Below are positions 34,201 to 64,000 of a DNA stretch of 64,000 bases, piece after piece (the stretch's first letter is position 1; every line of letters begins with the position of its first letter). Source of the DNA: an uncultured bacterium (lineage in GTDB: Bacteria > Patescibacteriota > Minisyncoccia > Phycocordibacterales > PALSA-1337); NCBI GenBank assembly GCA_903839725.1, contig CAIMDG010000003.1, positions 31,829-95,828 on the forward strand. Direction: 5' to 3'. The position numbers and the translations under genes were made by a program. The notes beneath the pieces were generated by a model, which saw only the letters and a program-made list of their open reading frames with translations, was not told where the DNA came from and searched no databases.

Positions 34201-34204
34201 CATG

Positions 34205-38685: not shown

Positions 38686-38862
38686 CAATGATCCGTAAGG
38701 ACTGCTAAACGCAGTCCGAGCGGAGCATCATTGCGACGAGGTGCCGAGAATCGAACGCCGGAACGTGCGAGCTCTAGCAAGAGCGAGCCGTGAGGCGGTG
38801 CCCAGACCGAGCCGAACTGGTGAGGCGAGAGTCGCGGGCGATTCTCGGCACCCGCACACAAA
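38686..38862. repeat. GC-rich ~150-bp segment carrying an inverted copy (38730-38746) and a direct 20-nt copy (38843-38862, CGATTCTCGGCACCCGCACA) of the tRNA-Gly T-arm/3' end. It looks like an att site or integration/excision scar, or a tRNA-derived MITE
   Basis: Read directly. GC ~60% against a ~38% background. The antisense track ORFs 38372..38686 and 38577..38873 are artefacts. Confidence 0.5.
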
Positions 38863-45924: not shown

Positions 45925-46050
45925 CGAACACAGGAGGAACTGTGCATACTCATTTTCCACAGAAGTTTAGAGACACGTACATTACACCGCGTACCACGAT
46001 GTTTACAAACTTCTGTGGAAAATGAGTATGCACAGTTCCTCCTGTGTTCG
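45925..46050. repeat. PAL-A element copy B (core 45965-46010; arms a perfect 40-bp complement)
   Basis: Read directly. The track ORF start at 46022 lies inside this element. Confidence 0.9.
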
Positions 46051-46081
46051 CCCCTCAAAACGATATGGTATAATTATCCCC

Positions 46082-48874
46082 ATGAACGCGCCTCGCTTTG
46101 AGCAGCAGACAAAAACCGAAACACCGGAGCAAGAACTTTCTCGTATTCGTGAAGTTGCTTCGAAACATGTTGAAACTTCTCGTGAAAGTGGTATTGAAAT
46201 AAGTCCACGCACTGCTACCCATGAAGTCGTCAAAGCATATGCCGATACGATCACCAGTGAGGTATTGCATCCTAACTACGCTCTTGAGCACAAGGAAGTT
46301 GAAGCTATTACATTACAACTATCTCCGGAACCTCATGATAAACAAATAGAACAACTCCTCGGCATTATGGAAGAAAAGGGTATTAAGAATGCCTTGAATG
46401 TTGCCATGAAGATGAAAAATCCTCATTTACTTGATGATTTTTTTCGTGTACTCGTACAATGCGTTGCTTCCGGTTTTCCTATTCATGGACTTACAGAATC
46501 TGATCCACTCTGGAGACCGCTTCACATGACCCTATTCGAAGTCAGTCTTCCTGAGACATCAGAAGATGACAAGAAGAAACAGCTCAAAGAATTGATTTCG
46601 GGCATGCAGCAATTTTATGCTGGCATGATGACTGTATCCTCAGATGCGTGGTTCACTATTGAAATTGCAAATTCAAATGGAAGCGAAGAATCCATCTTCT
46701 ATGTTTCGGTGCCGACGATTCACGAAGAATTGTTCGAAAAACAAATTATTTCAATCTTTCCTGACGCTACACTTCGTGAGCATAAAAATGATTACAATAT
46801 TTTCAATGAATCAGGAATTTCGGTTGGTTCATATGCGACACTCGCCAAGCATCCACTATATCCGCTCAAACCTTACGAAGAGTTTGATGTCGATCCACTT
46901 AACTCACTATTAAGTAGTTTTTCAAAGATAAATAAAGACGGCGAAGGAGCCGCAATACAACTTGTTATTGGTGACAAGAGAGATACGTATGCCAAACAAG
47001 GCGCCAAAGTGCTCGAAAAGATTCGCAAGGGTGAAAAAGTCAAAGATGCACTGAGTGATGTGTACAGTGGTATTGCTCGTACATTTTTTAAAGAAGTTGG
47101 GTACATGTTCAAGAGTCAGGAAAAAATTGATAAGGAAAAAAGTGAGAAAGAAAAGCGTGCAAGTGCAGTCGATCAGATATCGATTGATCAATTTACAGAA
47201 AAATTGAAGTCACCATTTGTGTCAGTGAATATCCGTATCGTTGCATCAGCAGCAACTGTTGATGAATCAACTGGTCTGTTGCTCGATTTGCAATCAAGTT
47301 TCCATCAGTTCGAGAATGGTCACGGCAATGCCTTGAATTGGAAAGCGGTTAGTCCAGCTGTGTTGCCGGATTTCTTGGAAGAATTTTCATTGCGTACGTT
47401 CAGTAAAGAAGAAGAGATTATTCTCAGTCTCAAGGAAATGACAACATGTATCCATTTCCCAGCTTCTACTGTCGGTCGTGCCGCACCTGGTCTCAAGCAG
47501 AGCAAGGCCGGTACATCTCCTGTTCCTTTGGAAATTTCGAAACAAGGAACACTTATTGGTTTGAATAAACATCGCGGTGTTGAGTCAAAGGTATATATTG
47601 CCCCTGAGGATCGTATGCGTCACTTCTATGTGATCGGTCAAACTGGTACCGGTAAAACTGGCTTGCTCAAAAATATGATTGTTCAAGATATCCAAGCAGG
47701 ACACGGTGTCTGTTTCATCGATCCACACGGTTCGGATATTATGGATATTTTGGCGAATATTCCGCCAGAACGTTATGAAGATGTTATCTATTTTGATCCC
47801 GCATCTGTTGATCGTCCGATGGCACTTAATATGCTCGAGTATGATCGCTCATCTCCTGAGCAGAAGACATTCGTGGTCAATGAAATGTTTAGTATATTCC
47901 AGAAGCTCTACGGGGCTACACCTGAGTCCATGGGTCCAATGTTCGAACAATATTTCCGTAACGCTACGATGTTGGTGATCGAGGATCCTGATACTGGTTG
48001 TACATTGCTCGACGTATCTCGTGTTATGTCGAACAAAGCATTTCGTGATTTGAAGATAGCCAATTGTAAGAACCCGGTTATCGTTCAATTCTGGAAAGAG
48101 ATTGCCGAAAAAGCTGGAGGTGAAGCATCTCTTGCAAATATTGTGCCATATATCGTTTCAAAGTTCGACGTCTTCTTGGCGAATGAAATCATGCGACCAA
48201 TCATTGCTCAAGAAAAGTCATCATTCAATATGCGTGACGTGATGGATAATAAAAAGATTTTGCTCGTGAATCTCGCAAAGGGAAGACTCGGCGATATCAA
48301 CTCACATTTGATTGGTCTTATTCTCGTCGGAAAAATTTTGATGGCAGCATTGTCACGTGTTGATTCATTTGGTAAGCCAATGTCTGATTTCTTCTTGTAT
48401 TTGGACGAGTTCCAGAATATCACCACTGATTCGATCGCTACGATTCTTTCTGAAGCTCGTAAGTATCGTTTGTCGATGACTATCGCGCACCAATTCGTTG
48501 CACAACTCGAAGATAAGATCAAAGATGCTGTATTCGGTAACGTCGGTTCGATGGCGGTATTCCGTGTAGGTACCGAAGATGCTGAATTCTTCGAAAAACA
48601 GTTTACGCCAACATTCAAGCAGAACGACATCATCAATCTCGACAATCGTAATGCCTATGTGCGCCTATTGTCTGGTGGACGTCCAACCAAACCGTTCAAT
48701 ATTGTGACTGTGCAAGCAGAAAAAGGTGATCCAGCTCAAGTAGACAAGTTGAAAGAACTCTCATCATTGATTTTTGGTAGACCACGCGCTGAGGTTGAAG
48801 AAGAAGTCATGAAGAAGTACAATTCTATGAAGAAGCCGTTGGCTATACCAGAAGTGCCTCTTGCTAGAAAATAA
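46082..48874 (+). CDS. TraD/VirD4-like (TrwB/TraG family) P-loop NTPase with a ~500-aa N-terminal domain of unknown function
   Basis: Walker A YVIGQTGTGKTG, then FIDPHGSDIMD and a Walker B-like FFLYLDEFQNI, resembling T4SS coupling-protein/DUF87-type ATPases. Start chosen at MNAPRFEQ, downstream of PAL-A copy B. Confidence 0.5.
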   Translation: MNAPRFEQQTKTETPEQELSRIREVASKHVETSRESGIEISPRTATHEVVKAYADTITSEVLHPNYALEHKEVEAITLQLSPEPHDKQIEQLLGIMEEKGIKNALNVAMKMKNPHLLDDFFRVLVQCVASGFPIHGLTESDPLWRPLHMTLFEVSLPETSEDDKKKQLKELISGMQQFYAGMMTVSSDAWFTIEIANSNGSEESIFYVSVPTIHEELFEKQIISIFPDATLREHKNDYNIFNESGISVGSYATLAKHPLYPLKPYEEFDVDPLNSLLSSFSKINKDGEGAAIQLVIGDKRDTYAKQGAKVLEKIRKGEKVKDALSDVYSGIARTFFKEVGYMFKSQEKIDKEKSEKEKRASAVDQISIDQFTEKLKSPFVSVNIRIVASAATVDESTGLLLDLQSSFHQFENGHGNALNWKAVSPAVLPDFLEEFSLRTFSKEEEIILSLKEMTTCIHFPASTVGRAAPGLKQSKAGTSPVPLEISKQGTLIGLNKHRGVESKVYIAPEDRMRHFYVIGQTGTGKTGLLKNMIVQDIQAGHGVCFIDPHGSDIMDILANIPPERYEDVIYFDPASVDRPMALNMLEYDRSSPEQKTFVVNEMFSIFQKLYGATPESMGPMFEQYFRNATMLVIEDPDTGCTLLDVSRVMSNKAFRDLKIANCKNPVIVQFWKEIAEKAGGEASLANIVPYIVSKFDVFLANEIMRPIIAQEKSSFNMRDVMDNKKILLVNLAKGRLGDINSHLIGLILVGKILMAALSRVDSFGKPMSDFFLYLDEFQNITTDSIATILSEARKYRLSMTIAHQFVAQLEDKIKDAVFGNVGSMAVFRVGTEDAEFFEKQFTPTFKQNDIINLDNRNAYVRLLSGGRPTKPFNIVTVQAEKGDPAQVDKLKELSSLIFGRPRAEVEEEVMKKYNSMKKPLAIPEVPLARK

Positions 48875-51393: not shown

Positions 51394-52080
51394 ATGGAAA
51401 CAAAGAAAACTATTGAAGCTATGTTCGGAGCAGGAGCTCATTTCGGTCTTGGCCGCTCACGCCGTCATCCGACTGTAGCACCATTTATTTTCGGTACGAA
51501 AAACAGCACAGATATCTTCGATCTTGAAAAGACCGAGGTTCTTCTTGCAAAAGTAAAGCTACATATCGCTCAATTAGCAAAAGAAGGTAAGACTATTTTG
51601 TTTGTTGGAGGCAAGAAAGAGGCTGCGGCTGCTATCAAGGCTTCTGCTGATGCTCTCAATATGCCGTATGTCGATGGTCGCTTCATCGGAGGTACTATGA
51701 CAAACTTCGGACAAGTTCGTAAGCGTGTTGAACGTTACGAAAAACTCATTTCTGATCGTGAGAAGGGTGAATTGCTCAAATATACCAAGCGTGAACGTGC
51801 ACTTCTCGACAAAGAGATTGCAAAGCTCGAAAAAATGTTCCTCGGCATCGTTTCTTTGAAGAGAATGCCTGATGTCCTTTTTGTTATCGATCCTCGCCGT
51901 GAAAAGAATGCCGTCAAAGAGGCTGCTGATATGAATATTCCCGTTATTGCTCTTGCAGGATCAGACTGTGATATTAGAGAAGTCAAATATCCTATCGTTG
52001 GAAATGATTCATCAAAGGCAAGTATTCAGTTTTTCATCGAAGAGATCGCAAGTGCCTACAAGAAAGCAAAGGTCGCTTAG
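51394..52080 (+). CDS. rpsB: 30S ribosomal protein S2
   Basis: MFGAGAHFGLGRSRRHP and conserved S2 core blocks. Confidence 0.95.
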   Translation: METKKTIEAMFGAGAHFGLGRSRRHPTVAPFIFGTKNSTDIFDLEKTEVLLAKVKLHIAQLAKEGKTILFVGGKKEAAAAIKASADALNMPYVDGRFIGGTMTNFGQVRKRVERYEKLISDREKGELLKYTKRERALLDKEIAKLEKMFLGIVSLKRMPDVLFVIDPRREKNAVKEAADMNIPVIALAGSDCDIREVKYPIVGNDSSKASIQFFIEEIASAYKKAKVA

Positions 52081-52278
52081 TCTGTCGGTTAGCTTAACTA
52101 TTCCTATTATCGGACAATTACCATGATCAGCCCATTTTTTTTGTGGCAACGAGGTCAGAAAAAACCTATTCAGCCCAAAGTTCCAGATACGTCACATAAA
52201 GGGAAACAGATCGAAGAAAAGAAGCCAGTTCAATCCACATCACAACCATTAGTAGCGCAATCACATAAAACATCATCT

Positions 52279-52866
52279 ATGATCACTACAGACCAAATCA
52301 AGAATCTTCGAGACCAAACAGGTATTTCTGTTATGCAGTGTAAGAAAGCCCTTGAAGAGGCTGGAGGCGACATGGAAAAGGCTCTCGTTATTCTTCGTAA
52401 GAAGAGTGGTGAACTTTCTGCAAAGAAGGCAGATCGTACATTTGGTTCTGGAACTATTCAAGCCTATGTTCACGCAAATGGTAATGTTGCCGCACTCGTT
52501 GAACTCAACTGCGAAACTGATTTCGTTTCAGGAAATGATGAATTCAAGACACTTGCACGCGATATCGCTATGCATATCACCGCTTCGAACCCAAAGTTTT
52601 TGAAGAAAGAAGATATTACTGAGGCTGATCTTAACGTTGCTCGTTCAGTATTTGCTGAAGAGGTCAAGAATAAGCCTGCTGCAATGCAAGAAAAAATTCT
52701 CCAAGGTAAACTCGATACTTATTTTGCTGAAATGGTATTGCTCAATCAGCCATTTATCAAGAATCCAGAAATTACTATTCAAGGACTTATCGATGCTGCT
52801 GTTCAGAAATTTGGAGAAAAGACAGCAATTGCTCGTTTCAAGAGATTCAAAGTTCTCGAGAATTAA
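52279..52866 (+). CDS. tsf: Elongation factor Ts
   Basis: UBA-like N-terminus IKNLRDQTGISVMQCKKALEEAGGDMEKAL. The track ORF begins at 52123; the Met that aligns with canonical EF-Ts N-termini was chosen instead. Confidence 0.85.
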   Translation: MITTDQIKNLRDQTGISVMQCKKALEEAGGDMEKALVILRKKSGELSAKKADRTFGSGTIQAYVHANGNVAALVELNCETDFVSGNDEFKTLARDIAMHITASNPKFLKKEDITEADLNVARSVFAEEVKNKPAAMQEKILQGKLDTYFAEMVLLNQPFIKNPEITIQGLIDAAVQKFGEKTAIARFKRFKVLEN

Positions 52867-52890
52867 TTTGCAAGTTGGTGTGTTCACCCT

Positions 52891-53268
52891 ATGTATACAC
52901 TTATTACATTATTCTATCTCTCATTCTTGATCATGATCGTCATGGTTTGGAACAAGAGGCGTGAGCTACACACGGGTCATCCGAGCATGGCCTCTCGTTT
53001 GGGTGTAAAAACGGATCATATATTTCAGAAGGCGCATGTCACTACCAAGAAGGGACTTTCATATATTAATAAACATACATTCATTGCCTTGGCGCAATGG
53101 ATGGCTTTTCATGTACTTGTACGTGTGCGAAAAGTATATGTTCAGCTCAAGCACCACTTCATATCAAACCCACATGGTAAACGTATGATCGATGCAGTAC
53201 GTGGTCGTGGGGAAATAAAGAAACATGGTGCATCTTTCTATTTGAGAAGGATTTCAGGAGAAAAGTAG
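52891..53268 (+). CDS. Hypothetical small membrane protein
   Basis: ORF with an N-terminal TM helix and a basic remainder. Confidence 0.3.
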   Translation: MYTLITLFYLSFLIMIVMVWNKRRELHTGHPSMASRLGVKTDHIFQKAHVTTKKGLSYINKHTFIALAQWMAFHVLVRVRKVYVQLKHHFISNPHGKRMIDAVRGRGEIKKHGASFYLRRISGEK

Positions 53269-53320
53269 GAAGGAGGTTGCTGATATTGTGAAAATAAGTT
53301 AATCTAGGGAGCAGTAGAAA

Positions 53321-53429
53321 TAGGGAAAATCTGGTCTCGCTTTCCCTGGGAGAGGAAATTCTGGTCTCGTCTTCATCATTGCTTACGCAATAATGAAGAC
53401 TCGATCCGAATTTCGCAAAGCCGAAATTC
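53321..53429 (+). promoter_or_regulatory. tRNA leader module copy 2: GGGAAAATCTGGTCTCG, GAGGAAATTCTGGTCTCG, a 14-bp hairpin (loop TTAC), TCGATCCGAATTTC, then GAAATTC immediately 5' of tRNA-Thr
   Basis: Same order and spacing as the module upstream of tRNA-Gly. Confidence 0.6.
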
Positions 53430-53502
53430 GCCACCTTAGCTCAGTTGGTAGAGCAACGCTTTTGTAAAGCGAAGGTCCCCAGTTCAAGTCTGGGAGGTGG
53501 CT
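53430..53502 (+). tRNA. tRNA-Thr (anticodon TGT)
   Basis: Cloverleaf by hand. Acceptor GCCACCT/AGGTGGC, D-arm GCTC-AGTTGGTA-GAGC, anticodon loop TTTGTAA, T-arm CCCAG-TTCAAGT-CTGGG, discriminator T. Confidence 0.9.
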
Positions 53503-53546
53503 CAGAAACAAATACTTTTAAGTAGCCCGTATGTTAAAATGGCTAC

Positions 53547-54329
53547 ATGGAGAGAATACGTAAGGGAAAAGAAAATATGGCAACCATTTTCGCTTTGAGC
53601 TATCAGATGGCGAAGGCCAATTTTAAAGTACGAAATGAAGGTAGTTATTTGGGTGTCATCTGGTACCTATTGAATCCGATATCATATTTCGTTGTGCTAT
53701 TGTTTTTGGGTGGTTCTATTTATAACAATTCGATACCGTATTATCCTGCATATCTTTTGCTTGGTTTGATCATGTTCAATTTCTTTTTATCAGTTACCGG
53801 ATCTTCTTCTTTGGTTATTTCGGGTAATAAAAATTTTATTAAATCAATAAAAATTAATCCTCTTACGTTCATATTTGCGAATATTCTCACCAATATTTTT
53901 TCTCACGCAATTGAAGTTATTCTTTTTATAATTGTGCTTCTGTTCCTTCATATAAATCCTATTTTTGTAGTATTTTATCCTTTGATATTTTTATGTTTGT
54001 GTTTATTTACGACTGGTATTTCGCTTATATTTGCCACTATTGGAGTATATGTTTCTGATTGGCAGAATGTGTGGAAAGTGCTTGGAAGTTTGTTGTGGTT
54101 CGTTACACCAGTATTTTATGTTATTAAGAAAGCAGATAGTGCTATCGGACACATAAACTACGTTAATCCATTCTTTCATTTCTTGACGATTGCTCGCAAT
54201 CTGATCATATATGAAAAGGCACCAACACTATTCTCGGTATGTGGCATTATTGCTTTTGGTATAGTAACTTTTGTAGTTGGTTTGTATATTTTTAATAAGA
54301 AGGCCCGTTCATTTGCTGAGAATATCTAA
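53547..54329 (+). CDS. ABC-2 type polysaccharide/teichoic-acid exporter permease (Wzm/TagG-like)
   Basis: Six TM helices and the N-terminal block YLGVIWYLLNP typical of ABC-2 permeases. Confidence 0.75.
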   Translation: MERIRKGKENMATIFALSYQMAKANFKVRNEGSYLGVIWYLLNPISYFVVLLFLGGSIYNNSIPYYPAYLLLGLIMFNFFLSVTGSSSLVISGNKNFIKSIKINPLTFIFANILTNIFSHAIEVILFIIVLLFLHINPIFVVFYPLIFLCLCLFTTGISLIFATIGVYVSDWQNVWKVLGSLLWFVTPVFYVIKKADSAIGHINYVNPFFHFLTIARNLIIYEKAPTLFSVCGIIAFGIVTFVVGLYIFNKKARSFAENI

Positions 54330-54330
54330 T

Positions 54331-55086
54331 ATGAATACACAAGCACATAAAAATAGAATAGAAGTGCAGGACGTCTCAAAGGTTTTCCGAGTCAAAACCA
54401 AAGGTACAGATGTAGCCCTATCTCATCTCGCTCATTTTTTTCAAGATAGTAAAAAGAAGTCATATATTCGGGTACTCAATAATATTTCTTTTACTGTTGC
54501 ACCTGGTGAAATTTTGGGGATCATAGGCAAGAATGGGTCGGGGAAAAGTACATTATTACAGATTATGGCAGATGTATATTCACCAAATTCAGGATCTATC
54601 GTACGTAATGGTGAGGTATTTTATTTAACGTCTATGGGTATAGGTATTATAGAAAAATTATCAATGAAAGATAATATCTTCTTGGTGGGAGCTATTATGG
54701 GTATGAGTCAGAAAAAGATTAAAGATATATACAATCAAATTGTGGATTTTTCTGAACTTGGCGACTTTGTTGATATGAAGGTATGTCATTTTTCCAAAGG
54801 TATGATTGGTCGTCTCGGTTTCTCAATAAGTGTTTTCTGTTTACAGAATAGAATGACAGAAATATTACTTCTCGATGAAGTGTTCGGCTCAGGTGCGGAC
54901 TTCGAATTTGAGAAAAAAGCTATAAAAAAGATGGAAGAACTCATACAAGGAGGAGCAACTGTTGTTATGGTGAGTCATAGTTTACCAACTATTGAAAAAT
55001 ATTGTGACCGAGTTATTTGGCTCGATAAAGGGAATATCAAAGCGATAGGAGCCGCACAGGATGTGATTAGTAAATATGTTGCATAA
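54331..55086 (+). CDS. ABC exporter ATP-binding protein (Wzt/TagH-like)
   Basis: Walker A GKNGSGKSTLL, signature FSKGMIGRLGFS, Walker B LLLDEV. Confidence 0.8.
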   Translation: MNTQAHKNRIEVQDVSKVFRVKTKGTDVALSHLAHFFQDSKKKSYIRVLNNISFTVAPGEILGIIGKNGSGKSTLLQIMADVYSPNSGSIVRNGEVFYLTSMGIGIIEKLSMKDNIFLVGAIMGMSQKKIKDIYNQIVDFSELGDFVDMKVCHFSKGMIGRLGFSISVFCLQNRMTEILLLDEVFGSGADFEFEKKAIKKMEELIQGGATVVMVSHSLPTIEKYCDRVIWLDKGNIKAIGAAQDVISKYVA

Positions 55087-55092
55087 TATCGC

Positions 55093-56061
55093 ATGATTTT
55101 TCTTAAGAAAAAACCGATTTCGCAAGATAGGTATTTGATTGTAAAAGGCAATAGTGGCTTTGGTAACAGGATATCTCTGGTAATAAAAGCAATGCTATAT
55201 GCCGAAATTACAGATCGGCGAGTTGTTATTGATTGGAGAGATGGAATGTATGCTGATAAGGGGATAAATTCATTCTTTCTTGCCTTTGACGTTGAAGGAG
55301 TTACGCCTTTTGAAGAAGATGGTAACTATGGAAAAGATGTATTTCCTCGTATATGGGTACGAAATATGGAAAAGGATGTTCACGACATTATGGATGAGTA
55401 TTATCCCAATACATATCCTTTGATTGATAAGACAGGGATTGATCCTTTTAAACTGGATTATGAGGAAAAAGTAGTTGTTATGACAGGTTTTGGTATGTCT
55501 GGTGAAGAGTTTGAATTTTACAAAAAAAATAGCAATGGAAAGATTGCAGATGGGAATATGTATGAGTGCATGACACGTATATTGCAGTCGAACATCAAAC
55601 TAAAACCATTGTTGAAAAAAGAGATTGAAGATTACGTAAAACAAAATTTTGTTGGAGAAACTATCGGTGTGCATATTCGTAACACTGATTGTGCTGCAAT
55701 AATGAAAGAAGATGGTGGTAAATTGACCAATGACTCAACATATACAGCAGTGCATATGATGGCTCACGCGCATCCACACGCTCAGATATTTATTGCTACA
55801 GACAGTGTAGAAGTCTTGAATAGCTATATCGATATATATAAAGATAGGGTTATATATATTGATAAATATTTTAATGATGATCCCAAGAAACCTATACACT
55901 TCTTTAATGAAGATACAGAGAAATCATTTTTTGAAGCTTTAAAAGATTTGTATCTTCTTGCACAGTCAGAGTATCTTATTTATTCTCATCGCACTTCTTT
56001 TGGTAGAATTGCACGATTACTGTCGAAAACTAGTAAAGATAAGATTATTAAGATAGTATAG
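55093..56061 (+). CDS. Hypothetical; possible GT-B glycosyltransferase of the fucosyltransferase-like superfamily
   Basis: N-terminal block GNSGFGNRISLVIKA resembles the G-(G/F)-GN-(Q/R) motif of GT11/O-FucT-like enzymes. Weak. Confidence 0.3.
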   Translation: MIFLKKKPISQDRYLIVKGNSGFGNRISLVIKAMLYAEITDRRVVIDWRDGMYADKGINSFFLAFDVEGVTPFEEDGNYGKDVFPRIWVRNMEKDVHDIMDEYYPNTYPLIDKTGIDPFKLDYEEKVVVMTGFGMSGEEFEFYKKNSNGKIADGNMYECMTRILQSNIKLKPLLKKEIEDYVKQNFVGETIGVHIRNTDCAAIMKEDGGKLTNDSTYTAVHMMAHAHPHAQIFIATDSVEVLNSYIDIYKDRVIYIDKYFNDDPKKPIHFFNEDTEKSFFEALKDLYLLAQSEYLIYSHRTSFGRIARLLSKTSKDKIIKIV

Positions 56062-56079
56062 GTTTTCACGTTTGAAGTT

Positions 56080-59070
56080 ATGAAAAAAGATTCAGTTGCA
56101 GTAATAATAGGCATTAAAAACAGATATGACTACAGAATAGTCAATGCCTTGAAGAGTATCCGAAATCAAGACTACGATGCAGATCTTATTGAAATTATTC
56201 TGGTTGATTATGGTAGTGAGGAGAAGTACAAGGAGTATTTTGACTCACTGTGTCAAAAATTTAATATACATGGTATTTGGATCGGAGTTGATAAAGTCTG
56301 GAATAAATCAAACTGTCTCAATATAGGCATAAAAAATTCCTCTTCTGAATACTTGTTGAATAGTGACGTTGATATTGTATTTAGTCGTGATTATATATCT
56401 TCCTGCATAAAAATTATTAAAGAAAATGAGCGACAAGCCCTATATTGTAAAATGCTCGATTCGCACAAAGATGATATAACCGCTGAAATACATGTGTCAG
56501 ATGTACCGATACTTAAGGAAAAGTGTTTCTATAGAGATAGAGGAGGAGGATTTAAATATGGATCAAGTATTATTTTCTTGAAGAAGACATATTTCGAAGA
56601 AATTAATGGATATGATGAATTTTACAAGATGTGGGGCAATGAAGATGGTGACTTTATCTTTAGATTGTCAAAAATTGGTCTTGATTTGAATGAAATAAGT
56701 GATATTACATATCATATACATCAGTGGCACCCAAAATTTGAAGGTGTTGGTCACGTTGAAGGATTCGATGAAGTAAAAGAAGCTAATAGTTTATATTATA
56801 GAAAAAATTATTCGATTATCAGAAATCTCAATGGGTGTGGGCAGATAGAGAATCCTGCAGAACAGCAGATAGTCGAGAAGCGACCACAGAAACTCGAAGG
56901 TACGATATGGGGGATTACGACCTTTTTCAACCCAACACAATATACTATTAAATATGAAAACTATAAGATATTTCGAGAAAAAACAAAAAGACAAGGACTT
57001 AAGCTCATAGCTGTAGAATTGGTATTTGGAAATACTCCTTTTGAATTAAAAAATCAAGATGCAGATATCGTAATTCGACTGAGAACAGATAAAGACAATA
57101 TATTGTGGCAGAAGGAAGCAATGTTAAATTGCGCCTTGAAAAGATTACCTAGAAATTGTGACAAAATTGTATGGATTGATTGTGATGTTATTTTCAAAAA
57201 TGAAAATTGGCTTACAGAGACATGTGCTCTTTTGGAGCAATACGTTGTAGTTCAACCGTTTGAAAAAGTTGTGAGATTGAAAAAAGGTAAAACTGACATC
57301 AGTGTATTCCGAAAAATTCCAGAAGGTACAGGCGATGGTCATATGTATCAGGGTATTGCATATGGCATGATCAATAGTAATGGGGGAATTATTGAGTCCA
57401 AATGGACAGGTCTCACTGGTTTCGCGTGGGCCGCTCGAAGAAGTATATTTAAGGATCAGACATTCTATGACCGAATGATTTTGGGTGGAGGTGATTTGTT
57501 GATGGCCAATGCCTTTTACGGATTGAATAACTTTAGAAAAAATGCAGATCACCCATTCGGTATGGTTCTGCTTGAAGATTCGTGGATATATGCAATGTAT
57601 CAAAAAGTAAAAGGAAGTGTGTATTATACGAATGGCAATGTATTGCACCTATGGCATGGAAATCAAAAAAATAAAGCCTATACAGCCAGAGATTCTGTAC
57701 TAAGGTTATATGATTTCGAACCTCGAGAAGATGTGAAGATCGATGATGATGGTGTGTTGGTATGGAATACAGATAAATATGATTTGCGAGATGCGGTACG
57801 TACATATTTTTGGAGCAGAAATGAAGATGGAAGTTTCGTGAGATATGTTACATCAGTCGCACATCATGCATCGGGGGTACAAGATAAACATAAGATTGAA
57901 TATACACCTCGGCCTGCACTGGTTCCTCATCAATATCCAGAAAAACTTCCAGGAACTATCTGGGGTATAACAACCTTTTTTAATCCTGCAGGATATGAAA
58001 ATAAATACGAGAATTTCAAGATATTCAGACAACACATAAAGAGACAAGGACTAAAATTATTGGTTGTTGAACTTTCTTTTGAAAAAAATTCCTTTGAGTT
58101 GAAATATACTGATGCTGATATAGTGATACGGGTTCAGGGGGATGCAAAAAATATTATGTGGCAGAAAGAAGCCTTGCTTAATATTGGCTTAGATAATTTG
58201 CCTAAAAAATGTGATAAATTTGTGTGGCTTGATGGCGACATTATATTTCAGGATAATGAGTGGGTTATAGAAACAAAAAGACTTCTTGAAAAATATCGTG
58301 TTGTTCAGCCGTATAGTTTGTCAGTTATGATGAAAAAAGGGCAAAAAATTGAACGTGTAAAGCCGGAACATTTGAAATATGGTGATTCGTTGAATACGAA
58401 AAGATATGGGTATGCATATACAAGGACCAATCTTCATGATCGAACAGGTCACCCCGGTCTTGCGTGGGCAGCACGAAGAAGTGTATTTAAGGATATAAAA
58501 CTATATGACAAAATGATACTCGGTTCAGCTGATGTCGTTATAGCAGATTCAATGTACTCATCACATATTGGTCTCTATAAAGAATTTTACTCGCACCCCA
58601 TGATAGCTGACATAAAAGAGTGGATGGTACATTCATTTGAAAAAATTGGTGGGAGCGTATTTTATAGAAAAGGAACAGTGTTGCATCTGTGGCATGGTAA
58701 TCCGCGTAAACGTCAGTACATGGAAAGAAATCTTGTTCTTAGGAAGAATGATTTTAATCCAAAAAGCGATATTATAAAAAATCGTGCAGGTATCTGGCAG
58801 TGGAAAACAAAAAAAGATACCATTGTTGCATACGTGAAGTCGTATTTCTTTTTGAGAAATGAAGAGAATTCATTTTCTCCATCATATCTGCGTCTCTATT
58901 TTCAATTTTTGATTGGTAGAATACGACAAGGTCGTATGCGTAGGGTTCTGAATCTCAAGAAGGATAGATTACTGGGAAATACTGGATATGTAATAAAAAA
59001 AATAAGTCCACGTATGTACAGGTTCCTTGTTAAGAGGAAGCCTGGATGGGCGCAACCTCTCAATTATTAG
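56080..59070 (+). CDS. Multi-domain glycosyltransferase: N-terminal GT2-like domain plus two tandem homologous ~300-aa GT-A-like domains with DxD motifs
   Basis: GT2-like N-terminus (VIIGIKNRYDY...LVDYGSEE). Internal repeats at ~aa 268-560 and ~aa 625-915 both begin GTIWGITTFFNP and contain DADIVIR, WQKEA(M/L)LN, W(I/L)D(C/G)D(V/I)IF and VVQP(F/Y). Confidence 0.65.
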   Translation: MKKDSVAVIIGIKNRYDYRIVNALKSIRNQDYDADLIEIILVDYGSEEKYKEYFDSLCQKFNIHGIWIGVDKVWNKSNCLNIGIKNSSSEYLLNSDVDIVFSRDYISSCIKIIKENERQALYCKMLDSHKDDITAEIHVSDVPILKEKCFYRDRGGGFKYGSSIIFLKKTYFEEINGYDEFYKMWGNEDGDFIFRLSKIGLDLNEISDITYHIHQWHPKFEGVGHVEGFDEVKEANSLYYRKNYSIIRNLNGCGQIENPAEQQIVEKRPQKLEGTIWGITTFFNPTQYTIKYENYKIFREKTKRQGLKLIAVELVFGNTPFELKNQDADIVIRLRTDKDNILWQKEAMLNCALKRLPRNCDKIVWIDCDVIFKNENWLTETCALLEQYVVVQPFEKVVRLKKGKTDISVFRKIPEGTGDGHMYQGIAYGMINSNGGIIESKWTGLTGFAWAARRSIFKDQTFYDRMILGGGDLLMANAFYGLNNFRKNADHPFGMVLLEDSWIYAMYQKVKGSVYYTNGNVLHLWHGNQKNKAYTARDSVLRLYDFEPREDVKIDDDGVLVWNTDKYDLRDAVRTYFWSRNEDGSFVRYVTSVAHHASGVQDKHKIEYTPRPALVPHQYPEKLPGTIWGITTFFNPAGYENKYENFKIFRQHIKRQGLKLLVVELSFEKNSFELKYTDADIVIRVQGDAKNIMWQKEALLNIGLDNLPKKCDKFVWLDGDIIFQDNEWVIETKRLLEKYRVVQPYSLSVMMKKGQKIERVKPEHLKYGDSLNTKRYGYAYTRTNLHDRTGHPGLAWAARRSVFKDIKLYDKMILGSADVVIADSMYSSHIGLYKEFYSHPMIADIKEWMVHSFEKIGGSVFYRKGTVLHLWHGNPRKRQYMERNLVLRKNDFNPKSDIIKNRAGIWQWKTKKDTIVAYVKSYFFLRNEENSFSPSYLRLYFQFLIGRIRQGRMRRVLNLKKDRLLGNTGYVIKKISPRMYRFLVKRKPGWAQPLNY

Positions 59071-60176
59071 ATTTTCTCGATACGCTTTCTTATTTTCTCT
59101 GTGAATAGAGTGAGGTCAAACTGTTGAGCATGTTGCATGCAGATATCTTTGTATTTCAGTGGTTCACGAGATAATTCATCTCCAAGTTTTTGTATTGTCG
59201 TCAGCAGTTTTTCTACATCGATATCCTGTATCAATATTCCTGTCTTACCATCAAGTACTGTTTCTTTGTAGCCACCTTCATTTGGCGCAATAACTGGTTT
59301 TCCTGAAGCCAATGCTTCAACTACACTTAAACCGAAATCTTCATCTTTCGATGTGGTAATAAAGCCCTTACAATTAGCATAGAGTCGAATGAGCTCTTCG
59401 CGAGAAACCCAGCTTCGTATTTCAACGTTAGGTGTTTTGATTGTATTGCAGTGCTCGGCATATTCAGTGAAGTGGCGGGCCTGTTCATAGCTGCCAACAA
59501 TAATAAGTTTTTCATGGGGAAGTCGCGCGAATGCTCCAAGCTGCACATCGATCCTTTTCATATTGAGTAAACGATTGACTGAAAGCCAATAATCTCCTGT
59601 TTTCCCAAAATAGAAATCGGATGTTTTTACAGGAGGATGTATGACTTCTGCTTCTTTACCCAAGTATTTTTTTACTCGATTTTTTGTATTTACTGAATTA
59701 CATACAAGGGTGCCTACTTTTTCTGTATATTTTTTGTTGAGATATCTATTGTACCTAACCCATACGTCGAATATTGGACGAAGAATCCAAGGCACATTAT
59801 TGTTGCGAACATATTCATATAGATCCCATATCTCGCGAATAGGTGAGTGGACATACCAGAGGTTCGGTTGATTGTTCACTGCTCCCGACATGGCCCAGTC
59901 GCCATCAATGATATAAAAATCATATGCTGATTTGAGATTGAGTAGTCGAAATTTCCAGAGTGCGAATTGTTGTTTGAAAGGGGCACTGATAGGAATAGTT
60001 CCTATCGAATGTATTCTCGGTAATACATCTTTGAAGCCCATTTTTTTAATTTGTTCAGGGTTTATATTTGTCGTGTAGATATCGGCATTGAATTCACGAG
60101 CAAGATATAGTGCCACCATCTCAGCACCTCCGATATTGTCCATGTAATTGTGGAATAGAGCGATTTTTTTGTTCAT
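59067..60176 (-). CDS. Glycosyltransferase family 4 (GT-B)
   Basis: EDFGLSVVEALASGKPVIAPNEGGYKETV (E-x7-E motif). Confidence 0.8.
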   Translation of the reverse strand: MNKKIALFHNYMDNIGGAEMVALYLAREFNADIYTTNINPEQIKKMGFKDVLPRIHSIGTIPISAPFKQQFALWKFRLLNLKSAYDFYIIDGDWAMSGAVNNQPNLWYVHSPIREIWDLYEYVRNNNVPWILRPIFDVWVRYNRYLNKKYTEKVGTLVCNSVNTKNRVKKYLGKEAEVIHPPVKTSDFYFGKTGDYWLSVNRLLNMKRIDVQLGAFARLPHEKLIIVGSYEQARHFTEYAEHCNTIKTPNVEIRSWVSREELIRLYANCKGFITTSKDEDFGLSVVEALASGKPVIAPNEGGYKETVLDGKTGILIQDIDVEKLLTTIQKLGDELSREPLKYKDICMQHAQQFDLTLFTEKIRKRIEKI

Positions 60177-60187
60177 ATAGTGCAGTA

Positions 60188-61315
60188 TTATTTTTCTTTG
60201 ATGGCTAGAATACTCAACATAAATGCGGATGATATGGTTTGAACACCGATAACAAGCAATATAAGACCAAAAATTGATCCTTGTATTCCGTTATTGTATA
60301 TCTCATTTAAAATCCCGATGATGAGAAAGAGCATACCAATAATACCAGCTCTTTCGAGGGTGATATAGTTGAATAATTTTTCAAATAATATATTTTTTTC
60401 ACCAAGATGAGTGATGGCGTAAATCTTTGCGAAAAAAGTGAAGTATATAAGTTGATATCCGATAATAGTACAACCCGCTGATAGGAAAAGCTGATGAAGA
60501 TATACTGATGCATTCAAGGTACTTATAATTCCAATAAGAAATATAACTATTCCTGGAATTAAAAAAATAACCATAGGGGAATAGATAAGAATAAACCGTA
60601 GATGCCTCCAGCCGTCTTGGAATGAATTGAGTTTGGAAGAACCGAAACGCTCAGTATATGTCACTGGAATTTCCGAGATACTAAGATGTGATTTGGTAGC
60701 CTTGATAATCATTTCAGAAGCAAATTCCATACCGCGAGCCTTCAAGTTTAGTGTAACTAGTTTTTCTTTTGTTATAGCGCGAATACCACAGTGTATATCT
60801 TTTATTTTTACACCAAAGAAAAGACGAACAAGTCCTGAAAGCACCGGGTTCCCAATGTATTTGTGATGCCATGGCATAGAGCCGAGTTTGTTCGTAGTAT
60901 TTTTTTCAGTAACTTTCGCAAAACGATTTCCAATAATCAAATCATTTCCTTTTTTTAGTAGATCAATGAATTTTGGTATATCCCTGAAATCATATGTGCC
61001 ATCGAGGTCGGCCATGAATATATATGTTCCTCGAGCAATTGAAAAACCTTTTTGGTATGCAGATCCATATCCACGAATTGGTTCATGTACTAATTTCATA
61101 TCTACCAAAGAGGTATGTTTATTGGCTTCTATTATTTTTTGTATAATAGAAATACTCGCATCCTTTGAGCCATTATCAACAATAATAATCTCCATGGAAA
61201 TAGCATATGTTTGTATCGTGTGGATGATTTGATCAATACACGTTTCTATAGCTTTTTCCTCATCGAGACAAGGGAGGACTATGCTTAATTCAATTTTTTT
61301 ATTTGTAACAGGCAT
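60188..61315 (-). CDS. Glycosyltransferase family 2 with C-terminal TM helices (polyprenyl-phosphate sugar transferase/GtrB-like)
   Basis: IVLPCLDEE...IIVDNGSKD, a DLD motif (MADLDGTYD), then ~4 C-terminal TM helices. Confidence 0.8.
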   Translation of the reverse strand: MPVTNKKIELSIVLPCLDEEKAIETCIDQIIHTIQTYAISMEIIIVDNGSKDASISIIQKIIEANKHTSLVDMKLVHEPIRGYGSAYQKGFSIARGTYIFMADLDGTYDFRDIPKFIDLLKKGNDLIIGNRFAKVTEKNTTNKLGSMPWHHKYIGNPVLSGLVRLFFGVKIKDIHCGIRAITKEKLVTLNLKARGMEFASEMIIKATKSHLSISEIPVTYTERFGSSKLNSFQDGWRHLRFILIYSPMVIFLIPGIVIFLIGIISTLNASVYLHQLFLSAGCTIIGYQLIYFTFFAKIYAITHLGEKNILFEKLFNYITLERAGIIGMLFLIIGILNEIYNNGIQGSIFGLILLVIGVQTISSAFMLSILAIKEK

Positions 61316-61329
61316 AGTATACTTGGCTT

Positions 61330-63117
61330 ATGGTTTTAACTTTCGGGATAATCCTTCTCTGTGCACCTTTTGTATTGGTATTTCTGTATTCTAATACATT
61401 TAAGGATAGTATACGAATGATAGGTTCTATCGCTGCATTTCATGTAACTGTTTGTTTTTTGACACAACTTTTTCATGTATTTAATTACCCAGTTATATTC
61501 ATACTCAATATTGGGTTCATTGTTTCGCTGTATTATCTTTCGGGGGGAATATTGAACAAAAAGTCATGGAGTGTATTCAAAGATAATTGGTTTGTATTTC
61601 TTGTCCTTGTTGTCATTATTTTACAATTGGTATCAATACGTTTTTCTTATACTGGTCCAGTGCAAACCATGAGAGGAACAACACAAGTTGAGAATAGCAA
61701 TTACCCATACCCATATTTTTCTGATGAATGGGTAAATGTATCCCTCATCAAATACTGTATTTCGAACCATTCATTGTCTACAGTGAATCCACTGTATCAT
61801 GATGTGTCTTCGCCAAATATTTTATTTATTTTTACGGGAACAATTTCAGAATTTTTTGTATTGACCGGACTTGATCCACTTACTGCGTATGCTATTTTGC
61901 AGATGCTTGTTGTATTGGCTATATGTATATCGTTTTATATTTTATTGCGATATTACGGTATTTCTATGTATATCGCGGCCGTAACAGTTATAGGCTTCAT
62001 GTATATAACAAATAGTGGCAATTTACCGGCAATGTGGTCTCTGCTACCTGTTACATTGTCCGCCCTATTCTTGCCATGGATCATTCTTGCTCAGAAACAC
62101 AATATGAAAATATGGGCAATGGTATACAGTCTATTTGCGCTCATTATATATCCACCGATGCTTGTGTTTGTTGTGCCCATTCTAGGTATTGAGTTATATA
62201 CGTTGTATGTTCAGAAAAGTAAAAAAGAGTATATGGCATATCTTATAAAATTGTCTGGAATTGGTCTAGGAGCATTCATCGTTATTTTCTCTGTAGCATT
62301 TTTCCATTTTCATGTGTCTATTGGACAATTTTTCAGTAGATATATCGTTCGTTCAAATTTGGATTTCGGGATCCCTGATTATTCGTTTTGGCACGTATTA
62401 CCAGTGTTGATTATTTTGTGTTCTCTGTGCGGGATCTATGTTGCTTATAAGAAAAAATATTCTGAGATACTTATTCCAACTGTAGTTGGTGGCATCTTCT
62501 GGATAATGTATCTCTTTACTAGTAAGGTTTTTATCATAGAATATCCTCGAGTCGTTTTTATTACATCAATATTTCTTGTTGTTCTTGCCGGGTTCGGTAT
62601 TGAATATTTAGTTAGCGAATCGATTCGTAGAATACATATTGTGAAGGTAGATGCGGGTATGTATCGATATGTCGGTATGTTTATTCTTGTTCTGTATGTA
62701 GTACTTCTTGCAACGTATCCAACACAAGCTTCTTGGCAAGGAATAAATTCACGATTTCAAGACAGTCAAGGAAGCATACATATAATCCCGCCTGCCAATA
62801 TACTAAATAGATACCTACAAGATGATGATATGAAGATCTTCAAAGATATTCATGAGGTAAATTTTATTTCGATTCCGTGGAAGGCATTGGTCGTCGGGTC
62901 AGCAACACATAATTTCCCTCTAGAATCAAAATCTTCCACTATTTCAAGTCAGATATATTCATTTGCAAAATTTATGAATTTGAATTGTGCTCAAAAAGCT
63001 GAAATGGCAGGTACATACAAGGTTGCTTATGTCTATTCAGGACCATTCTCGTGCCCAAATTTCAAAGAGGTAACAAGAAGTGGTGAAGGTTTTGTATTAT
63101 ATTCATCTACTCACTAA
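61330..63117 (+). CDS. Large polytopic membrane protein (>=12 TM helices) with a C-terminal soluble domain; candidate GT-C-type glycosyltransferase or polymerase
   Basis: Topology only; family not recognised. Confidence 0.4.
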   Translation: MVLTFGIILLCAPFVLVFLYSNTFKDSIRMIGSIAAFHVTVCFLTQLFHVFNYPVIFILNIGFIVSLYYLSGGILNKKSWSVFKDNWFVFLVLVVIILQLVSIRFSYTGPVQTMRGTTQVENSNYPYPYFSDEWVNVSLIKYCISNHSLSTVNPLYHDVSSPNILFIFTGTISEFFVLTGLDPLTAYAILQMLVVLAICISFYILLRYYGISMYIAAVTVIGFMYITNSGNLPAMWSLLPVTLSALFLPWIILAQKHNMKIWAMVYSLFALIIYPPMLVFVVPILGIELYTLYVQKSKKEYMAYLIKLSGIGLGAFIVIFSVAFFHFHVSIGQFFSRYIVRSNLDFGIPDYSFWHVLPVLIILCSLCGIYVAYKKKYSEILIPTVVGGIFWIMYLFTSKVFIIEYPRVVFITSIFLVVLAGFGIEYLVSESIRRIHIVKVDAGMYRYVGMFILVLYVVLLATYPTQASWQGINSRFQDSQGSIHIIPPANILNRYLQDDDMKIFKDIHEVNFISIPWKALVVGSATHNFPLESKSSTISSQIYSFAKFMNLNCAQKAEMAGTYKVAYVYSGPFSCPNFKEVTRSGEGFVLYSSTH

Positions 63118-63205
63118 TATTCCTTGTTACCAGAGCAACTACTTGAGCACGGTACTATTTTCAAAGCTGTCCACACTTGTACGGTAAATTATGGGGGGTA
63201 TTTTG

Positions 63206-63214
63206 TGATATAAT
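63206..63214 (+). promoter_or_regulatory. Extended -10 element TGATATAAT 10 nt upstream of the Ser/Thr-rich protein start
   Basis: Read directly. Confidence 0.3.
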
Positions 63215-63223
63215 CTGGGTAAT

Positions 63224-64000
63224 ATGGTAGCCAAACTCCTCAATTTACGCCCTGAACCCAAGCCAATCATCATCGAAAAGGTGATACAGGTAAAACGAAT
63301 ATGGTGGCTGGAAATATTGAAGATGGTTACAGTCATTACTGTGGTCTCTAGTATCGTATATGGTATCTCCAAGGCTGACATAACTATCCCAACTTCATCA
63401 GTACAAAGCTTCAGTGCATTCGGTACTGTATCTGACATGTCTCCGGAAGTTATTTCTATTGAAAATGCACGATCCTCTGAAAAAGCAGGAGCAGTTTCAT
63501 ATACCTTCAAACTGACAGATGTTAAGAAGATTGAAAATCGTATACACGTAGCACTCCTCATGTCTGATATCCATGTTGGTGACAAAATTGTTGCTATGGG
63601 TATGTCGAATGATGGTGCAGTGACCATCAACCGAATTATTTCATTCTCATCTACTGCCACAACTAGTGATGTAGTTGCAATTCCACTCACAGCAAGTACC
63701 ACTGCTACATCAACTCTTGAAAATGCAACTTCAACAGCATCAACTACTTCAGTGGTAGCTACTTCTACTGCAACATCTACCGCATCTTCAACTCAATCGG
63801 GAGATTCAGTAAACATTTCAACAACCACCGCATCAACAACTCTTGAGATTGCAAGTTCAACAGCATCAACTACTCCAGTAGTGGCTACATCTACAGCTAC
63901 TACAACTGATAGCACCGCGACAACAACTCCAAGTAGTGCTACTTCAACAGATACAACAAATATTTCGACGACTACTTCCTCGGGATCAACGGCTCCTGCA
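63224..64000 (+). CDS. Ser/Thr-rich surface protein (N-terminal TM/signal anchor, small folded domain, then a long ATSTASTT-type low-complexity region); runs off the window end
   Basis: Frame open from the ATG at 63224 to nt 64000. Absent from the track because it has no stop. The antisense track ORF 63139..63702 is probably an artefact. Confidence 0.6.
   Translation, partial: MVAKLLNLRPEPKPIIIEKVIQVKRIWWLEILKMVTVITVVSSIVYGISKADITIPTSSVQSFSAFGTVSDMSPEVISIENARSSEKAGAVSYTFKLTDVKKIENRIHVALLMSDIHVGDKIVAMGMSNDGAVTINRIISFSSTATTSDVVAIPLTASTTATSTLENATSTASTTSVVATSTATSTASSTQSGDSVNISTTTASTTLEIASSTASTTPVVATSTATTTDSTATTTPSSATSTDTTNISTTTSSGSTAPA

Follow-up and report, generated by a model that had tools for sequence, protein, structure and literature searches.

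The DNA analysed here is a 64,000-nucleotide stretch from an uncultured bacterium (the window; statements about it cover these 64 kb), and its last part, positions 53547-64000, carries a gene cluster that is firmly supported as a locus for the assembly and export of a surface glycan. Equally firm support, from gene linkage, identifies the unit under selection as a core of five genes, encoding a glycosyltransferase (GT) of the GT-C type, a putative polyprenyl-phosphate GT of family GT2, a GT of family GT4, and the permease (Wzm) and ATPase (Wzt) of an ABC exporter. The structural model together with this linkage gives firm support to a role of the GT-C protein as an extracytoplasmic transferase tied to a lipid-sugar synthase and an exporter. 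Open reading frames (ORFs) were listed and translated, and proteins were annotated with Pfam and NCBIfam profiles. Every ORF named in an earlier note on this DNA was present at its coordinates, and each of its gene assignments held; it had the genes of a glycan locus right and missed the five-gene core, with the GT-C protein, not a Wzy_C-family protein, as the obvious transferase.

A scan of one genome per species for the GT-C protein yielded 107 relatives, of which 80 loci were fetched; further loci, including L001, L005, L087, L088 and the P0003 contig, came from an exact look-up. Linkage was counted in 84 non-redundant loci with the window proteins as phmmer queries against six-frame ORFs, and gene presence in the subset of 41 that were fully flanked. 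Among the latter, GT2 was found in 38/41, GT4 in 35/41, Wzt in 31/41 and Wzm in 29/41. The GT-C gene stood directly beside the polyprenyl-phosphate GT2 gene in 39 of the 84 loci and directly beside Wzm/Wzt in 22, with the order GT-C, Wzm, Wzt and gaps of 0-9 bp in ~13 loci, while GT4 immediately followed GT2 in 40 of the 53 loci having both. L017 is a minimal locus (4122-9673): the five core genes are its only glycan genes, and GT2 and GT4 its only cytoplasmic GTs. The gene arrangement of the window is not due to chance; its order recurs in L001, L087 and the P0003 contig.

Six loci without Wzm/Wzt (L024, L025, L027, L034, L052 and L067) encoded a Wzx/MOP (Polysacc_synt) flippase, and no Wzy polymerase was seen in any of these six. 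The exporter appears to be interchangeable between loci, and Wzx/MOP without Wzy fits the flipping of a short lipid-linked glycan. Polytopic membrane proteins with 10-12 transmembrane (TM) helices and no Pfam match were also noted (L003 3029-4630, L021 5247-6896, L022 2222-4054 and L043 13407-15179); these extra proteins, mostly in archaeal loci without Wzm/Wzt, may be alternative flippases or second GT-C enzymes. Accessory genes varied even among close relatives and included NodZ, a GT-A repeat family described below, GT8, GT10, GT11, GT25 and epimerases, as well as a fusion of GT2 with UDP-galactopyranose mutase in L005. Such fast variation of accessory GTs in close relatives is as expected for a surface glycan.

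The bacterial hosts were Patescibacteria, namely Paceibacterota, Nomura-, Taylor-, Staskawicz-, Falkow-, Andersen- and Levyibacteria, and the archaeal hosts were DPANN lineages, namely Woese-, Pace- and Nanoarchaeia. The GT-C gene, often with the whole five-gene module, was present in archaeal-labelled loci that included L003 (10001-11779), L026 (7788-9560), L019, L059 and others; L026 is an example of an archaeal contig with the whole module, and the archaeal identity of L003 and L026 was checked by their flanking L7Ae, S28e, L24e and Kae1 genes. That bacteria and archaea both carry the module implies that an envelope pathway was transferred between the domains. In the literature searched we found no description of the GT-C family, of the fixed five-gene combination or of its distribution across the candidate phyla radiation (CPR) and DPANN, and no paper there mentioned DUF6541 (see below) or GT-C enzymes in Patescibacteria. 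The components are of known kinds: a GT-C enzyme, a polyprenyl-phosphate GT2 and Wzm/Wzt.

The window cluster opens with the exporter on the forward strand, an ABC-2 permease (Wzm, 53547-54329; PF01061, 7e-16) next to an ABC ATPase (Wzt, 54313 or 54331 to 55086; PF00005, 2.8e-17), which together make a pair of the Wzm/Wzt/TagGH type. Depending on the start codon Wzt has 251-269 amino acids (aa), with 257 in the public gene call, and it is short, lacking a C-terminal carbohydrate-binding domain. The best NCBIfam match of Wzm was galactan Wzm/RfbD, below cutoff, and those of Wzt were TagH and galactan Wzt, sub-threshold matches that speak at the level of the family. The GT4 gene (59067-60176; PF00534, 8e-26) and the GT2 gene (60188-61315) follow on the reverse strand, and the GT-C gene (61330-63117) on the forward strand. 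The start codons of the divergent GT2 and GT-C genes are only 14 bp apart (61315-61330), so that each promoter has to be located within the adjacent coding sequence. A consensus scan of the cluster for promoters and terminators found fewer sites than in shuffled sequences and was uninformative.

The 595-aa GT-C protein is the defining component of the core. It matched no Pfam or NCBIfam family, and neither the single sequence (phmmer) nor a profile of 35 family members found anything among the solved structures of the Protein Data Bank (PDB) at E <= 10. An AlphaFold2 (AF2) model built with 35 homologues had a mean local confidence (pLDDT) of 91.3 and a predicted TM-score (pTM) of 0.91. Foldseek returned 18 PDB matches at E <= 1e-3, all of them GT-C enzymes with TM-scores of ~0.5, among them STT3 (1e-7), AftA (6e-6), PglB (7.5e-6), DPY19 (4e-4) and AglB (4.8e-4); ALG6/9, Pmt4 and EmbB were weaker neighbours, and neither transporters nor the O-antigen ligase WaaL resembled the model. 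The predicted structure is that of the GT-C superfamily, as the topology had led the earlier note to suspect, and the structural comparison for which it had called places the protein nearest STT3/PglB, then AftA. Residues D132-E133-W134, R407, C553 and C575 are invariant across the 35 homologues. The acidic motif D132-E133-W134 lies in the first large loop, which follows the fourth predicted helix and is outside by the positive-inside rule, and C553 and C575 are a Cys pair in an extracytoplasmic C-terminal domain of ~125 aa. DUF6541 (PF20176) was weakly matched by 3 of the 35 relatives (best 4.3e-07) and not by the window protein, and would be at most a distant relative. An exhaustive profile search among 1.84 billion proteins recovered 699 cluster representatives (50%-identity clusters), 320 of them at E <= 1e-30; judged by these profile matches, the 595-aa protein founds a small, discrete family of predicted GT-C enzymes. 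From its gene linkage to GT2 we infer that it uses a polyprenyl-phosphate-linked sugar donor.

The membrane GT2 (375 aa) has as its best solved relative the dolichol phosphate mannose synthase (DPMS) of Pyrococcus (PDB 5mlz, 6.4e-15 over residues 8-266), followed by GtrB (1.2e-7) and ArnC (1.5e-7). Its C-terminus consists of four hydrophobic TM helices, as it does in the Pyrococcus enzyme, and PF26629 (GT2_TM_C) was matched in its homologues. The best NCBIfam match was AglJ (1.5e-33, 116 bits versus a cutoff of 325), with PpgS (4.9e-18, 65 bits versus 370) and ArnC (49 bits versus 529) behind it; no equivalog cutoff was reached for orthology to AglJ, PpgS or ArnC. With a GT2 domain of the DPMS/GtrB/ArnC type and a C-terminal TM anchor, the protein is predicted to be a polyprenyl-phosphate glycosyltransferase, in agreement with the initial guess of a polyprenyl-phosphate sugar transferase.

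Taken together, these findings lead us to favour, tentatively, a single linear pathway in which a lipid-linked glycan is built inside the cell, exported by Wzm/Wzt and moved by the GT-C protein to surface proteins, a reading that we consider quite possible and still short of probable. The membrane GT2 would act at the cytoplasmic face and attach the initial sugar to polyprenyl phosphate, GT4 would extend the lipid-linked sugar, and in this organism the NodZ/FUT8-like and 996-aa enzymes (see below) would extend it further. Wzm/Wzt, or Wzx/MOP in some relatives, would then carry the lipid-linked glycan to the outer face, where the GT-C protein, with the invariant pair Asp132-Glu133 in the first of its large loops outside the membrane, would transfer it to extracytoplasmic acceptors. 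The likeliest acceptors would be surface proteins encoded directly downstream, here a mucin-like protein rich in Ser/Thr and, following it, a giant protein. Starting from the observed gene identities, folds, five-gene linkage, cross-domain distribution and neighbour statistics, we infer the lipid carrier, the order of the steps, the en bloc transfer and the acceptor. The linear pathway is favoured because it uses all five core genes with none missing, because it fits the minimal loci, the GT2-GT4 and GT-C-Wzm/Wzt gene orders and the substitution by Wzx, because it accounts for carriers among bacteria and archaea alike, and because the haloarchaeal AglJ-to-AglB route is a precedent for it and TfpW a partial one.

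Several points weigh against this scheme. No WWDYG-like motif occurs in any of the 35 GT-C family members, none of them gave an STT3 (PF02516) Pfam signal at E <= 1, and AftA, a single-sugar transferase, reaches the same TM-score as STT3 (~0.5). The acidic motif follows the fourth helix and not the first, and its match to the known GT-C catalytic loop is putative; the family itself is represented here by sequences and a predicted model. The Ser/Thr-rich neighbour is missing from more distant loci, the enrichment of surface proteins beside the GT-C gene (see below) ignores phylogenetic relatedness, and a phosphoglycosyltransferase or ligase could be encoded outside the 64-kb window. In L043 (3432-5840) and L050 (522-2732), a gene for a 13-TM Wzy_C-TPR protein immediately precedes GT-C, Wzm and Wzt. 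To our knowledge, the GtrB/ArnC-type GT2 enzymes characterised in bacteria all make monosaccharide donors and not primers, the polymers exported by characterised Wzm/Wzt systems are all linked to polyprenyl diphosphate, and among GT-C enzymes only GT66 is known for en bloc transfer of a glycan. A bolder form of the linear pathway, in which the five-gene core is a self-contained CPR/DPANN protein-glycosylation pathway with en bloc transfer to pilins, Ser/Thr-rich proteins and giant proteins resembling adhesins, is in our view unlikely; the same low estimate applies to its biochemical side, priming on polyprenyl monophosphate by a DPMS/AglJ-like GT2, extension by GT4 and variable GTs, flipping by Wzm/Wzt and transfer by a new GT-C enzyme that has the STT3/PglB-type fold and none of its motifs.

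The main rival is a scheme in which the two membrane enzymes act apart from the exporter, of the kind seen with the group A carbohydrate or mycobacterial arabinogalactan. A polymer would be built on polyprenyl diphosphate by an unlinked phosphoglycosyltransferase together with GT4, the NodZ-like protein and the 996-aa protein, and exported by Wzm/Wzt; GT2 and GT-C would decorate separately, the latter adding the monosaccharide from polyprenyl phosphate to side chains of the polymer, or to Ser/Thr of proteins in the manner of PMT, and another enzyme would attach the product. Decorating GT2/GT-C pairs include ArnC/ArnT, CsbB/YfhO and PpgS/Rv3779, and multi-domain GTs resembling the 996-aa protein typically serve as polymerases in ABC-dependent pathways. 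This is the scheme of every characterised bacterial GT2/GT-C pair, GacI/GacL within an ABC-exporter cluster being an example (10.1101/180810), and it agrees with the matches of GT2 to ArnC, GtrB and PpgS, with those of Wzm/Wzt to galactan and teichoic-acid exporters, and with AftA being structurally as close as STT3. However, minimal loci hold besides GT2 a single cytoplasmic GT, the GT4, and no monosaccharide-lipid flippase, primer enzyme or ligase is linked to the module, such that several unlinked genes would be needed. Neither a primer enzyme for polyprenyl diphosphate (WecA/TagO/WbaP) nor a system for terminating the polymer or setting its chain length was found in the window or recurring within 10 kb in the 84 loci. 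Moreover, the translational coupling of GT-C to Wzm/Wzt in ~13 loci and the tight GT2-GT4 order suggest one linear pathway, and some loci have Wzx in place of Wzm/Wzt with no Wzy polymerase. We regard separate decoration as possible, with doubts that prevail over its merits.

Characterised systems resemble the module in part. In the haloarchaeal Agl pathway (AglJ, AglG/I/E, a flippase and AglB), a DPMS-like GT2 likewise starts on polyprenyl monophosphate, AglJ-type enzymes initiating glycan assembly on dolichol phosphate in Haloferax (PMC3871713). Soluble GTs then extend the glycan, which is flipped and transferred to surface proteins by a GT-C enzyme with the STT3-type fold; the module described here is also found in archaea. 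In contrast to Agl, the GT-C protein here has neither WWDYG nor an STT3 signal, the flippase is Wzm/Wzt, most hosts are bacteria, the target is probably rich in Ser/Thr instead of sequons, and the AglJ score is 116 versus 325 bits. TfpW of Pseudomonas aeruginosa is a GT-C enzyme encoded beside its type IV pilin substrate that uses a polyprenyl-phosphate-linked sugar from the cytoplasm to place oligosaccharides on Ser/Thr, and it is proposed to combine the roles of polymerase and oligosaccharyltransferase (10.1101/2020.04.19.049825). Pilin genes similarly abut the present GT-C family in 6 loci; however, TfpW donors are supplied through DprE1/E2 and a GtrA-like protein, whereas GT2, GT4 and Wzm/Wzt are found here, no sequence relationship was detected, and the neighbour in the window is a Ser/Thr-rich anchored protein, not a pilin.

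The streptococcal group A carbohydrate and rhamnan loci (GacI-GacL with the GacDE exporter; GtrA/GtrB/GtrC scheme) also combine an exporter, GT2, GT4, a polyprenyl-phosphate GT2 and an outer GT-C enzyme in one cluster (10.1101/180810). Unlike those loci, the module has no equivalents of GtrA, GacK or GacJ and no rhamnose genes, WecA-type primer or LCP ligase nearby, and its GT-C family is unrelated in sequence, occurs in archaea too and is often translationally coupled to Wzm/Wzt. In the mycobacterial galactan locus (Rv3779 GT-C, Rv3781/Rv3783 Wzt/Wzm, GlfT1; PpgS), a GT-C enzyme again stands beside Wzm/Wzt and GT2 enzymes, and NCBIfam best matches to galactan Wzm/Wzt, that to PpgS and the UDP-galactopyranose mutase fusion of L005 point in the same direction. 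However, these scores are far below equivalog cutoffs, there is no arabinogalactan context here, and the target of the mycobacterial system is a peptidoglycan-linked polymer, which is impossible in the archaeal carriers of the module.

The candidate acceptor in the window is a TM-anchored, Ser/Thr-rich protein encoded directly after GT-C (63224-64000, forward strand, running off the window end). It comprises an N-terminal TM anchor, a domain of ~100 aa and a mucin-like tract of the ATSTASTT type, with 36% Ser+Thr overall. In the public copy of the contig, the Ser/Thr-rich gene (286 aa) is followed by that of a 2305-aa protein, two small genes and FtsW/RodA. The adjacency of this gene to the GT cluster, for which the earlier note had proposed a check in relatives, was conserved in the close clade (the window, L001 and L087), where the GT-C proteins are 53-60% identical and a giant LamG-type protein comes next in L001 and L087, and it was not conserved beyond that clade. 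The P0003 contig has a 300-aa gene without a Pfam match in the same slot, judged by size and position only. No homologues of the N-terminal domain were found outside the close clade (E <= 0.01).

Other surface proteins take this place elsewhere. Prepilin-type genes (GFTLIELLVV N-termini) lay within 310 bp of GT-C in 6 bacterial loci (L009 7317-7880, L013 2247-2714, L029 11993-12577, L037 9405-9890, L040 2991-3539 and L044 11705-12151) and within 2.5 kb in 3 more, an arrangement that recalls tfpW/pilA and tfpO/pilA. Genes of the pilM/N/O type directly preceded Wzm in L017 (1447-4118) and stood ~1.5 kb downstream of GT-C in L008, and one further pilM-type gene was seen in L056. L007, L012, L018, L028 and L041 encode proteins of 700-1850 aa that carry PG_binding_1 and BNR domains; L055 encodes an anchored, untyped protein of 1702 aa, and L088 an S8 peptidase. 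Surface-type proteins were enriched as immediate neighbours of GT-C, at 11/78 versus 30/779 elsewhere in the loci (odds ratio 4.1, p = 6e-4; the count excludes the window and L001 and ignores phylogenetic relatedness). N-x-S/T sequons showed no enrichment over composition in the neighbouring proteins of this clade (z <= 2), and support for N-linkage from sequons was rejected for it on that ground. Sequon enrichment was extreme only in the archaeal locus L019 (Woesearchaeota), where a 1296-aa protein encoded after GT-C (12049-15939) has 105 N-x-S/T, or 8.1 per 100 aa (z = 15.8 versus shuffles), and looks, from its sequence, like a heavily N-glycosylated archaeal surface protein.

A protein acceptor for the glycan is favoured because pilins and large anchored proteins recur beside GT-C in other lineages, because the whole module occurs in DPANN archaea, which have neither peptidoglycan nor lipopolysaccharide (LPS), and because no LCP or phosphoglycosyltransferase genes are found in or near the loci. 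The cross-domain presence argues against peptidoglycan or LPS as the acceptor; the earlier statement that this is not a classical LPS O-antigen locus stands, and the protein glycosylation suggested along with it is plausible and, as a proposal, strengthened. A distinctly unlikely alternative is that the product is a lipid-anchored lipoglycan or a secondary polymer of the cell wall, resembling teichoic acid or rhamnan, and that the surface proteins are encoded nearby by coincidence. The teichoic-acid and galactan exporters among the best matches of Wzt would suit such a product, as would the matches of GT4 to glycolipid-anchor synthases (IagA/BgsA and MGlcDAG synthase), all far below cutoffs, the restriction of the Ser/Thr-rich neighbour to one clade, and the Gram-positive-like wall of CPR cells; a lipid-anchored product is compatible with all these data. 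However, the whole module is found in archaea without peptidoglycan, pilins and surface proteins are enriched beside GT-C, and the module has no linked genes for an LCP ligase or of the TagO/WecA or TagF type. Neither LCP ligase and phosphoglycosyltransferase genes nor TagF, TagO or other teichoic-acid or capsule genes were found in the window or recurring in the 84 loci. Orthology to teichoic-acid or capsule loci, which had been named as a finding that would speak against protein glycosylation, was not established beyond the sub-threshold TagH and galactan matches of Wzt.

The Ser/Thr-rich protein could also be O-glycosylated in the cytoplasm by the GT4, in the manner of GtfA/B or SdgA/B, with the remaining genes making an unrelated polysaccharide. 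GT4 indeed weakly matched SdgA (1.4e-12, 46.9 bits versus a cutoff of 800) and GtfA (4.8e-06) and is encoded near such a protein, but these matches are at the level of any GT4 and no accessory Sec genes are present, and we hold this explanation to be very improbable indeed. A GtfA/SdgA-type role of the GT4 was rejected: its similarity is generic, and the gene is kept where there is no Ser/Thr-rich gene and is coupled to GT2.

The transferase proposed in the earlier note was a different protein, a Wzy_C-family protein with TPR repeats encoded at positions 1-1512 (forward strand, 5'-truncated by the window start), whose membership in the module was not borne out. The glycan exported by Wzm/Wzt would be ligated en bloc to Ser/Thr by this protein, as by PglL/PilO or WsaB/WsfB, and the GT-C protein would be accessory. 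Geobacillus and Paenibacillus use a Wzy_C ligase in the ABC-dependent O-glycosylation of their S-layers, and these systems, like PglL/PilO, share with the module the export of a lipid-linked glycan followed by transfer to Ser/Thr/Tyr of surface proteins. The window does hold a Wzy_C-family gene, as the S-layer systems (WsaB/WsfB) do, with a domain score above the Pfam cutoff (PF04932, 33.8 bits versus 31.7, profile positions 91-149); the visible part is the C-terminal third of the domain plus the TPR repeats, the N-terminal two thirds being outside the window. The fragment contains 'QARGYIWP...PLFGWG' and 'RAHSVFIDW', which resemble the Arg- and His-bearing motifs of ligases; alignment to the solved WaaL gave no match. 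However, the gene is 52 kb from the cluster, and genetic linkage was lacking in the relatives as well: phmmer found no Wzy_C gene within 10 kb of GT-C in 82/84 loci, and the two loci in which a Wzy_C-TPR gene adjoins the module, L043 and L050, belong to one clade. Their Wzy_C proteins, encoded directly upstream of GT-C, Wzm and Wzt, speak for such a ligase, and yet the membrane part of the window protein has no detectable similarity to them. The model also leaves the GT-C protein unexplained as the exporter's invariant partner, and it differs from the S-layer and PglL systems in that GT-C and the polyprenyl-phosphate GT2, absent there, are the invariant partners here. A role for the Wzy_C-TPR protein as the ligase of the pathway is therefore not upheld, and we think this explanation quite improbable.

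The two variable genes of the window cluster, both on the forward strand, encode accessory transferases. The first (55093-56061) specifies a NodZ/FUT8-like (GT23-type) putative fucosyltransferase (PF05830, 2.4e-15, 56.7 bits versus a cutoff of 28.3; FUT8 PF19745, 4.6e-07), and the cautious label "possible fucosyltransferase-like" was apt. A NodZ-like gene is present in L001 and L005, and other GTs are found instead in P0003, L087 and L088. The second (56080-59070) specifies the 996-aa protein, a triple-domain cytoplasmic enzyme with Pfam matches to GT2 and Glyco_transf_7C; its earlier description as a three-domain glycosyltransferase was correct, with a GT2 domain at ~aa 1-255 followed by tandem GT-A domains at ~aa 263-600 and 616-960. 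The two C-terminal repeats are 47% identical to each other. A repeat domain was modelled by AF2 with pLDDT 93.6 and a GT-A fold, nearest by Foldseek to the fucosyltransferase WrtF, TarP, chondroitin synthase and ppGalNAc-T; there were 259 PDB matches at E <= 1e-3, of which the best 50 were mostly GT-A enzymes with a few nucleotidyltransferases of the same fold. D103-x-D105 is invariant in the repeat family, as are H254 and H257, and the modelled domain combines a Rossmann-like GT-A fold with this DxD motif. The repeats could not be placed in any CAZy or Pfam family, a GT8 match of 0.0024 being the only and weak signal. The repeats (56866-58960) belong to a widespread stand-alone family of ~330 aa without a Pfam model (196 matches), found in Omnitrophica, Acidobacteria, Azospirillum and archaea and sometimes fused to NAD-dependent epimerases, which on the strength of the model is a candidate unclassified glycosyltransferase family.

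Attachment to host cells is the way of life of CPR bacteria and DPANN archaea, and it is mediated by their surface proteins and pili. We know of no account of how, or whether, CPR and DPANN surfaces are glycosylated. A study of the Saccharibacteria pilus calls such processes unexplored (PMC11623550). The locus points to a module of five genes that is compact, common to many lineages and portable for experiments; a new GT-C family is central to it, and candidate protein substrates are encoded beside it. If the GT-C protein were the terminal transferase, it would represent a new enzyme class for protein glycosylation in bacteria and archaea and a possible tool for glyco-engineering; if the pathway were also self-contained, it would be a third kind of oligosaccharyltransferase beside GT66 and the Wzy_C-type PglL/PilO, exchanged between both domains of ultra-small episymbionts. 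Present in bacteria and archaea alike, the module is a clear-cut example of an envelope pathway that two domains share. Even if GT2 and GT-C only decorate, the cluster would be the main surface-glycan locus of many Patescibacteria, and two unclassified transferase families, GT-C and the ~330-aa GT-A repeat, would have been defined.

With respect to its setting, the cluster has a tRNA-Thr(TGT) gene at its 5' edge (53430-53503, forward strand; ARAGORN and Rfam), a possible island boundary. The GC content is ~0.36 across the cluster (52001-64000) versus ~0.41 elsewhere in the window, and tsf and tRNA-Thr lie upstream of the cluster here, whereas trmD does in L001 and L087. The tRNA-Thr at the 5' edge, the lower GC content and the different insertion site in relatives give the cluster an island-like character, and they suggest a mobile or recombining glycan island.

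Further features of the window and of related loci were noted. A DedA(VTT)-PAP2 fusion protein (39244-40521) is encoded 3.2 kb from MurJ (34318-35997); it is a candidate for polyprenyl-phosphate recycling beside the lipid II flippase, and it bears on the supply of carrier lipid to a glycan pathway. Conjugation-like or type IV secretion system (T4SS)-like surface machinery is indicated in the window by a 950-aa coupling ATPase of the VirD4/TraG type (46022-48874) and in L002 by a row of T4SS_pilin genes after the GT-C locus (9211-11925). The window also contains a bacterial class A RNase P RNA (33882-34205, 107.5 bits) and a tRNA-Gly(CCC) gene (38615-38686).

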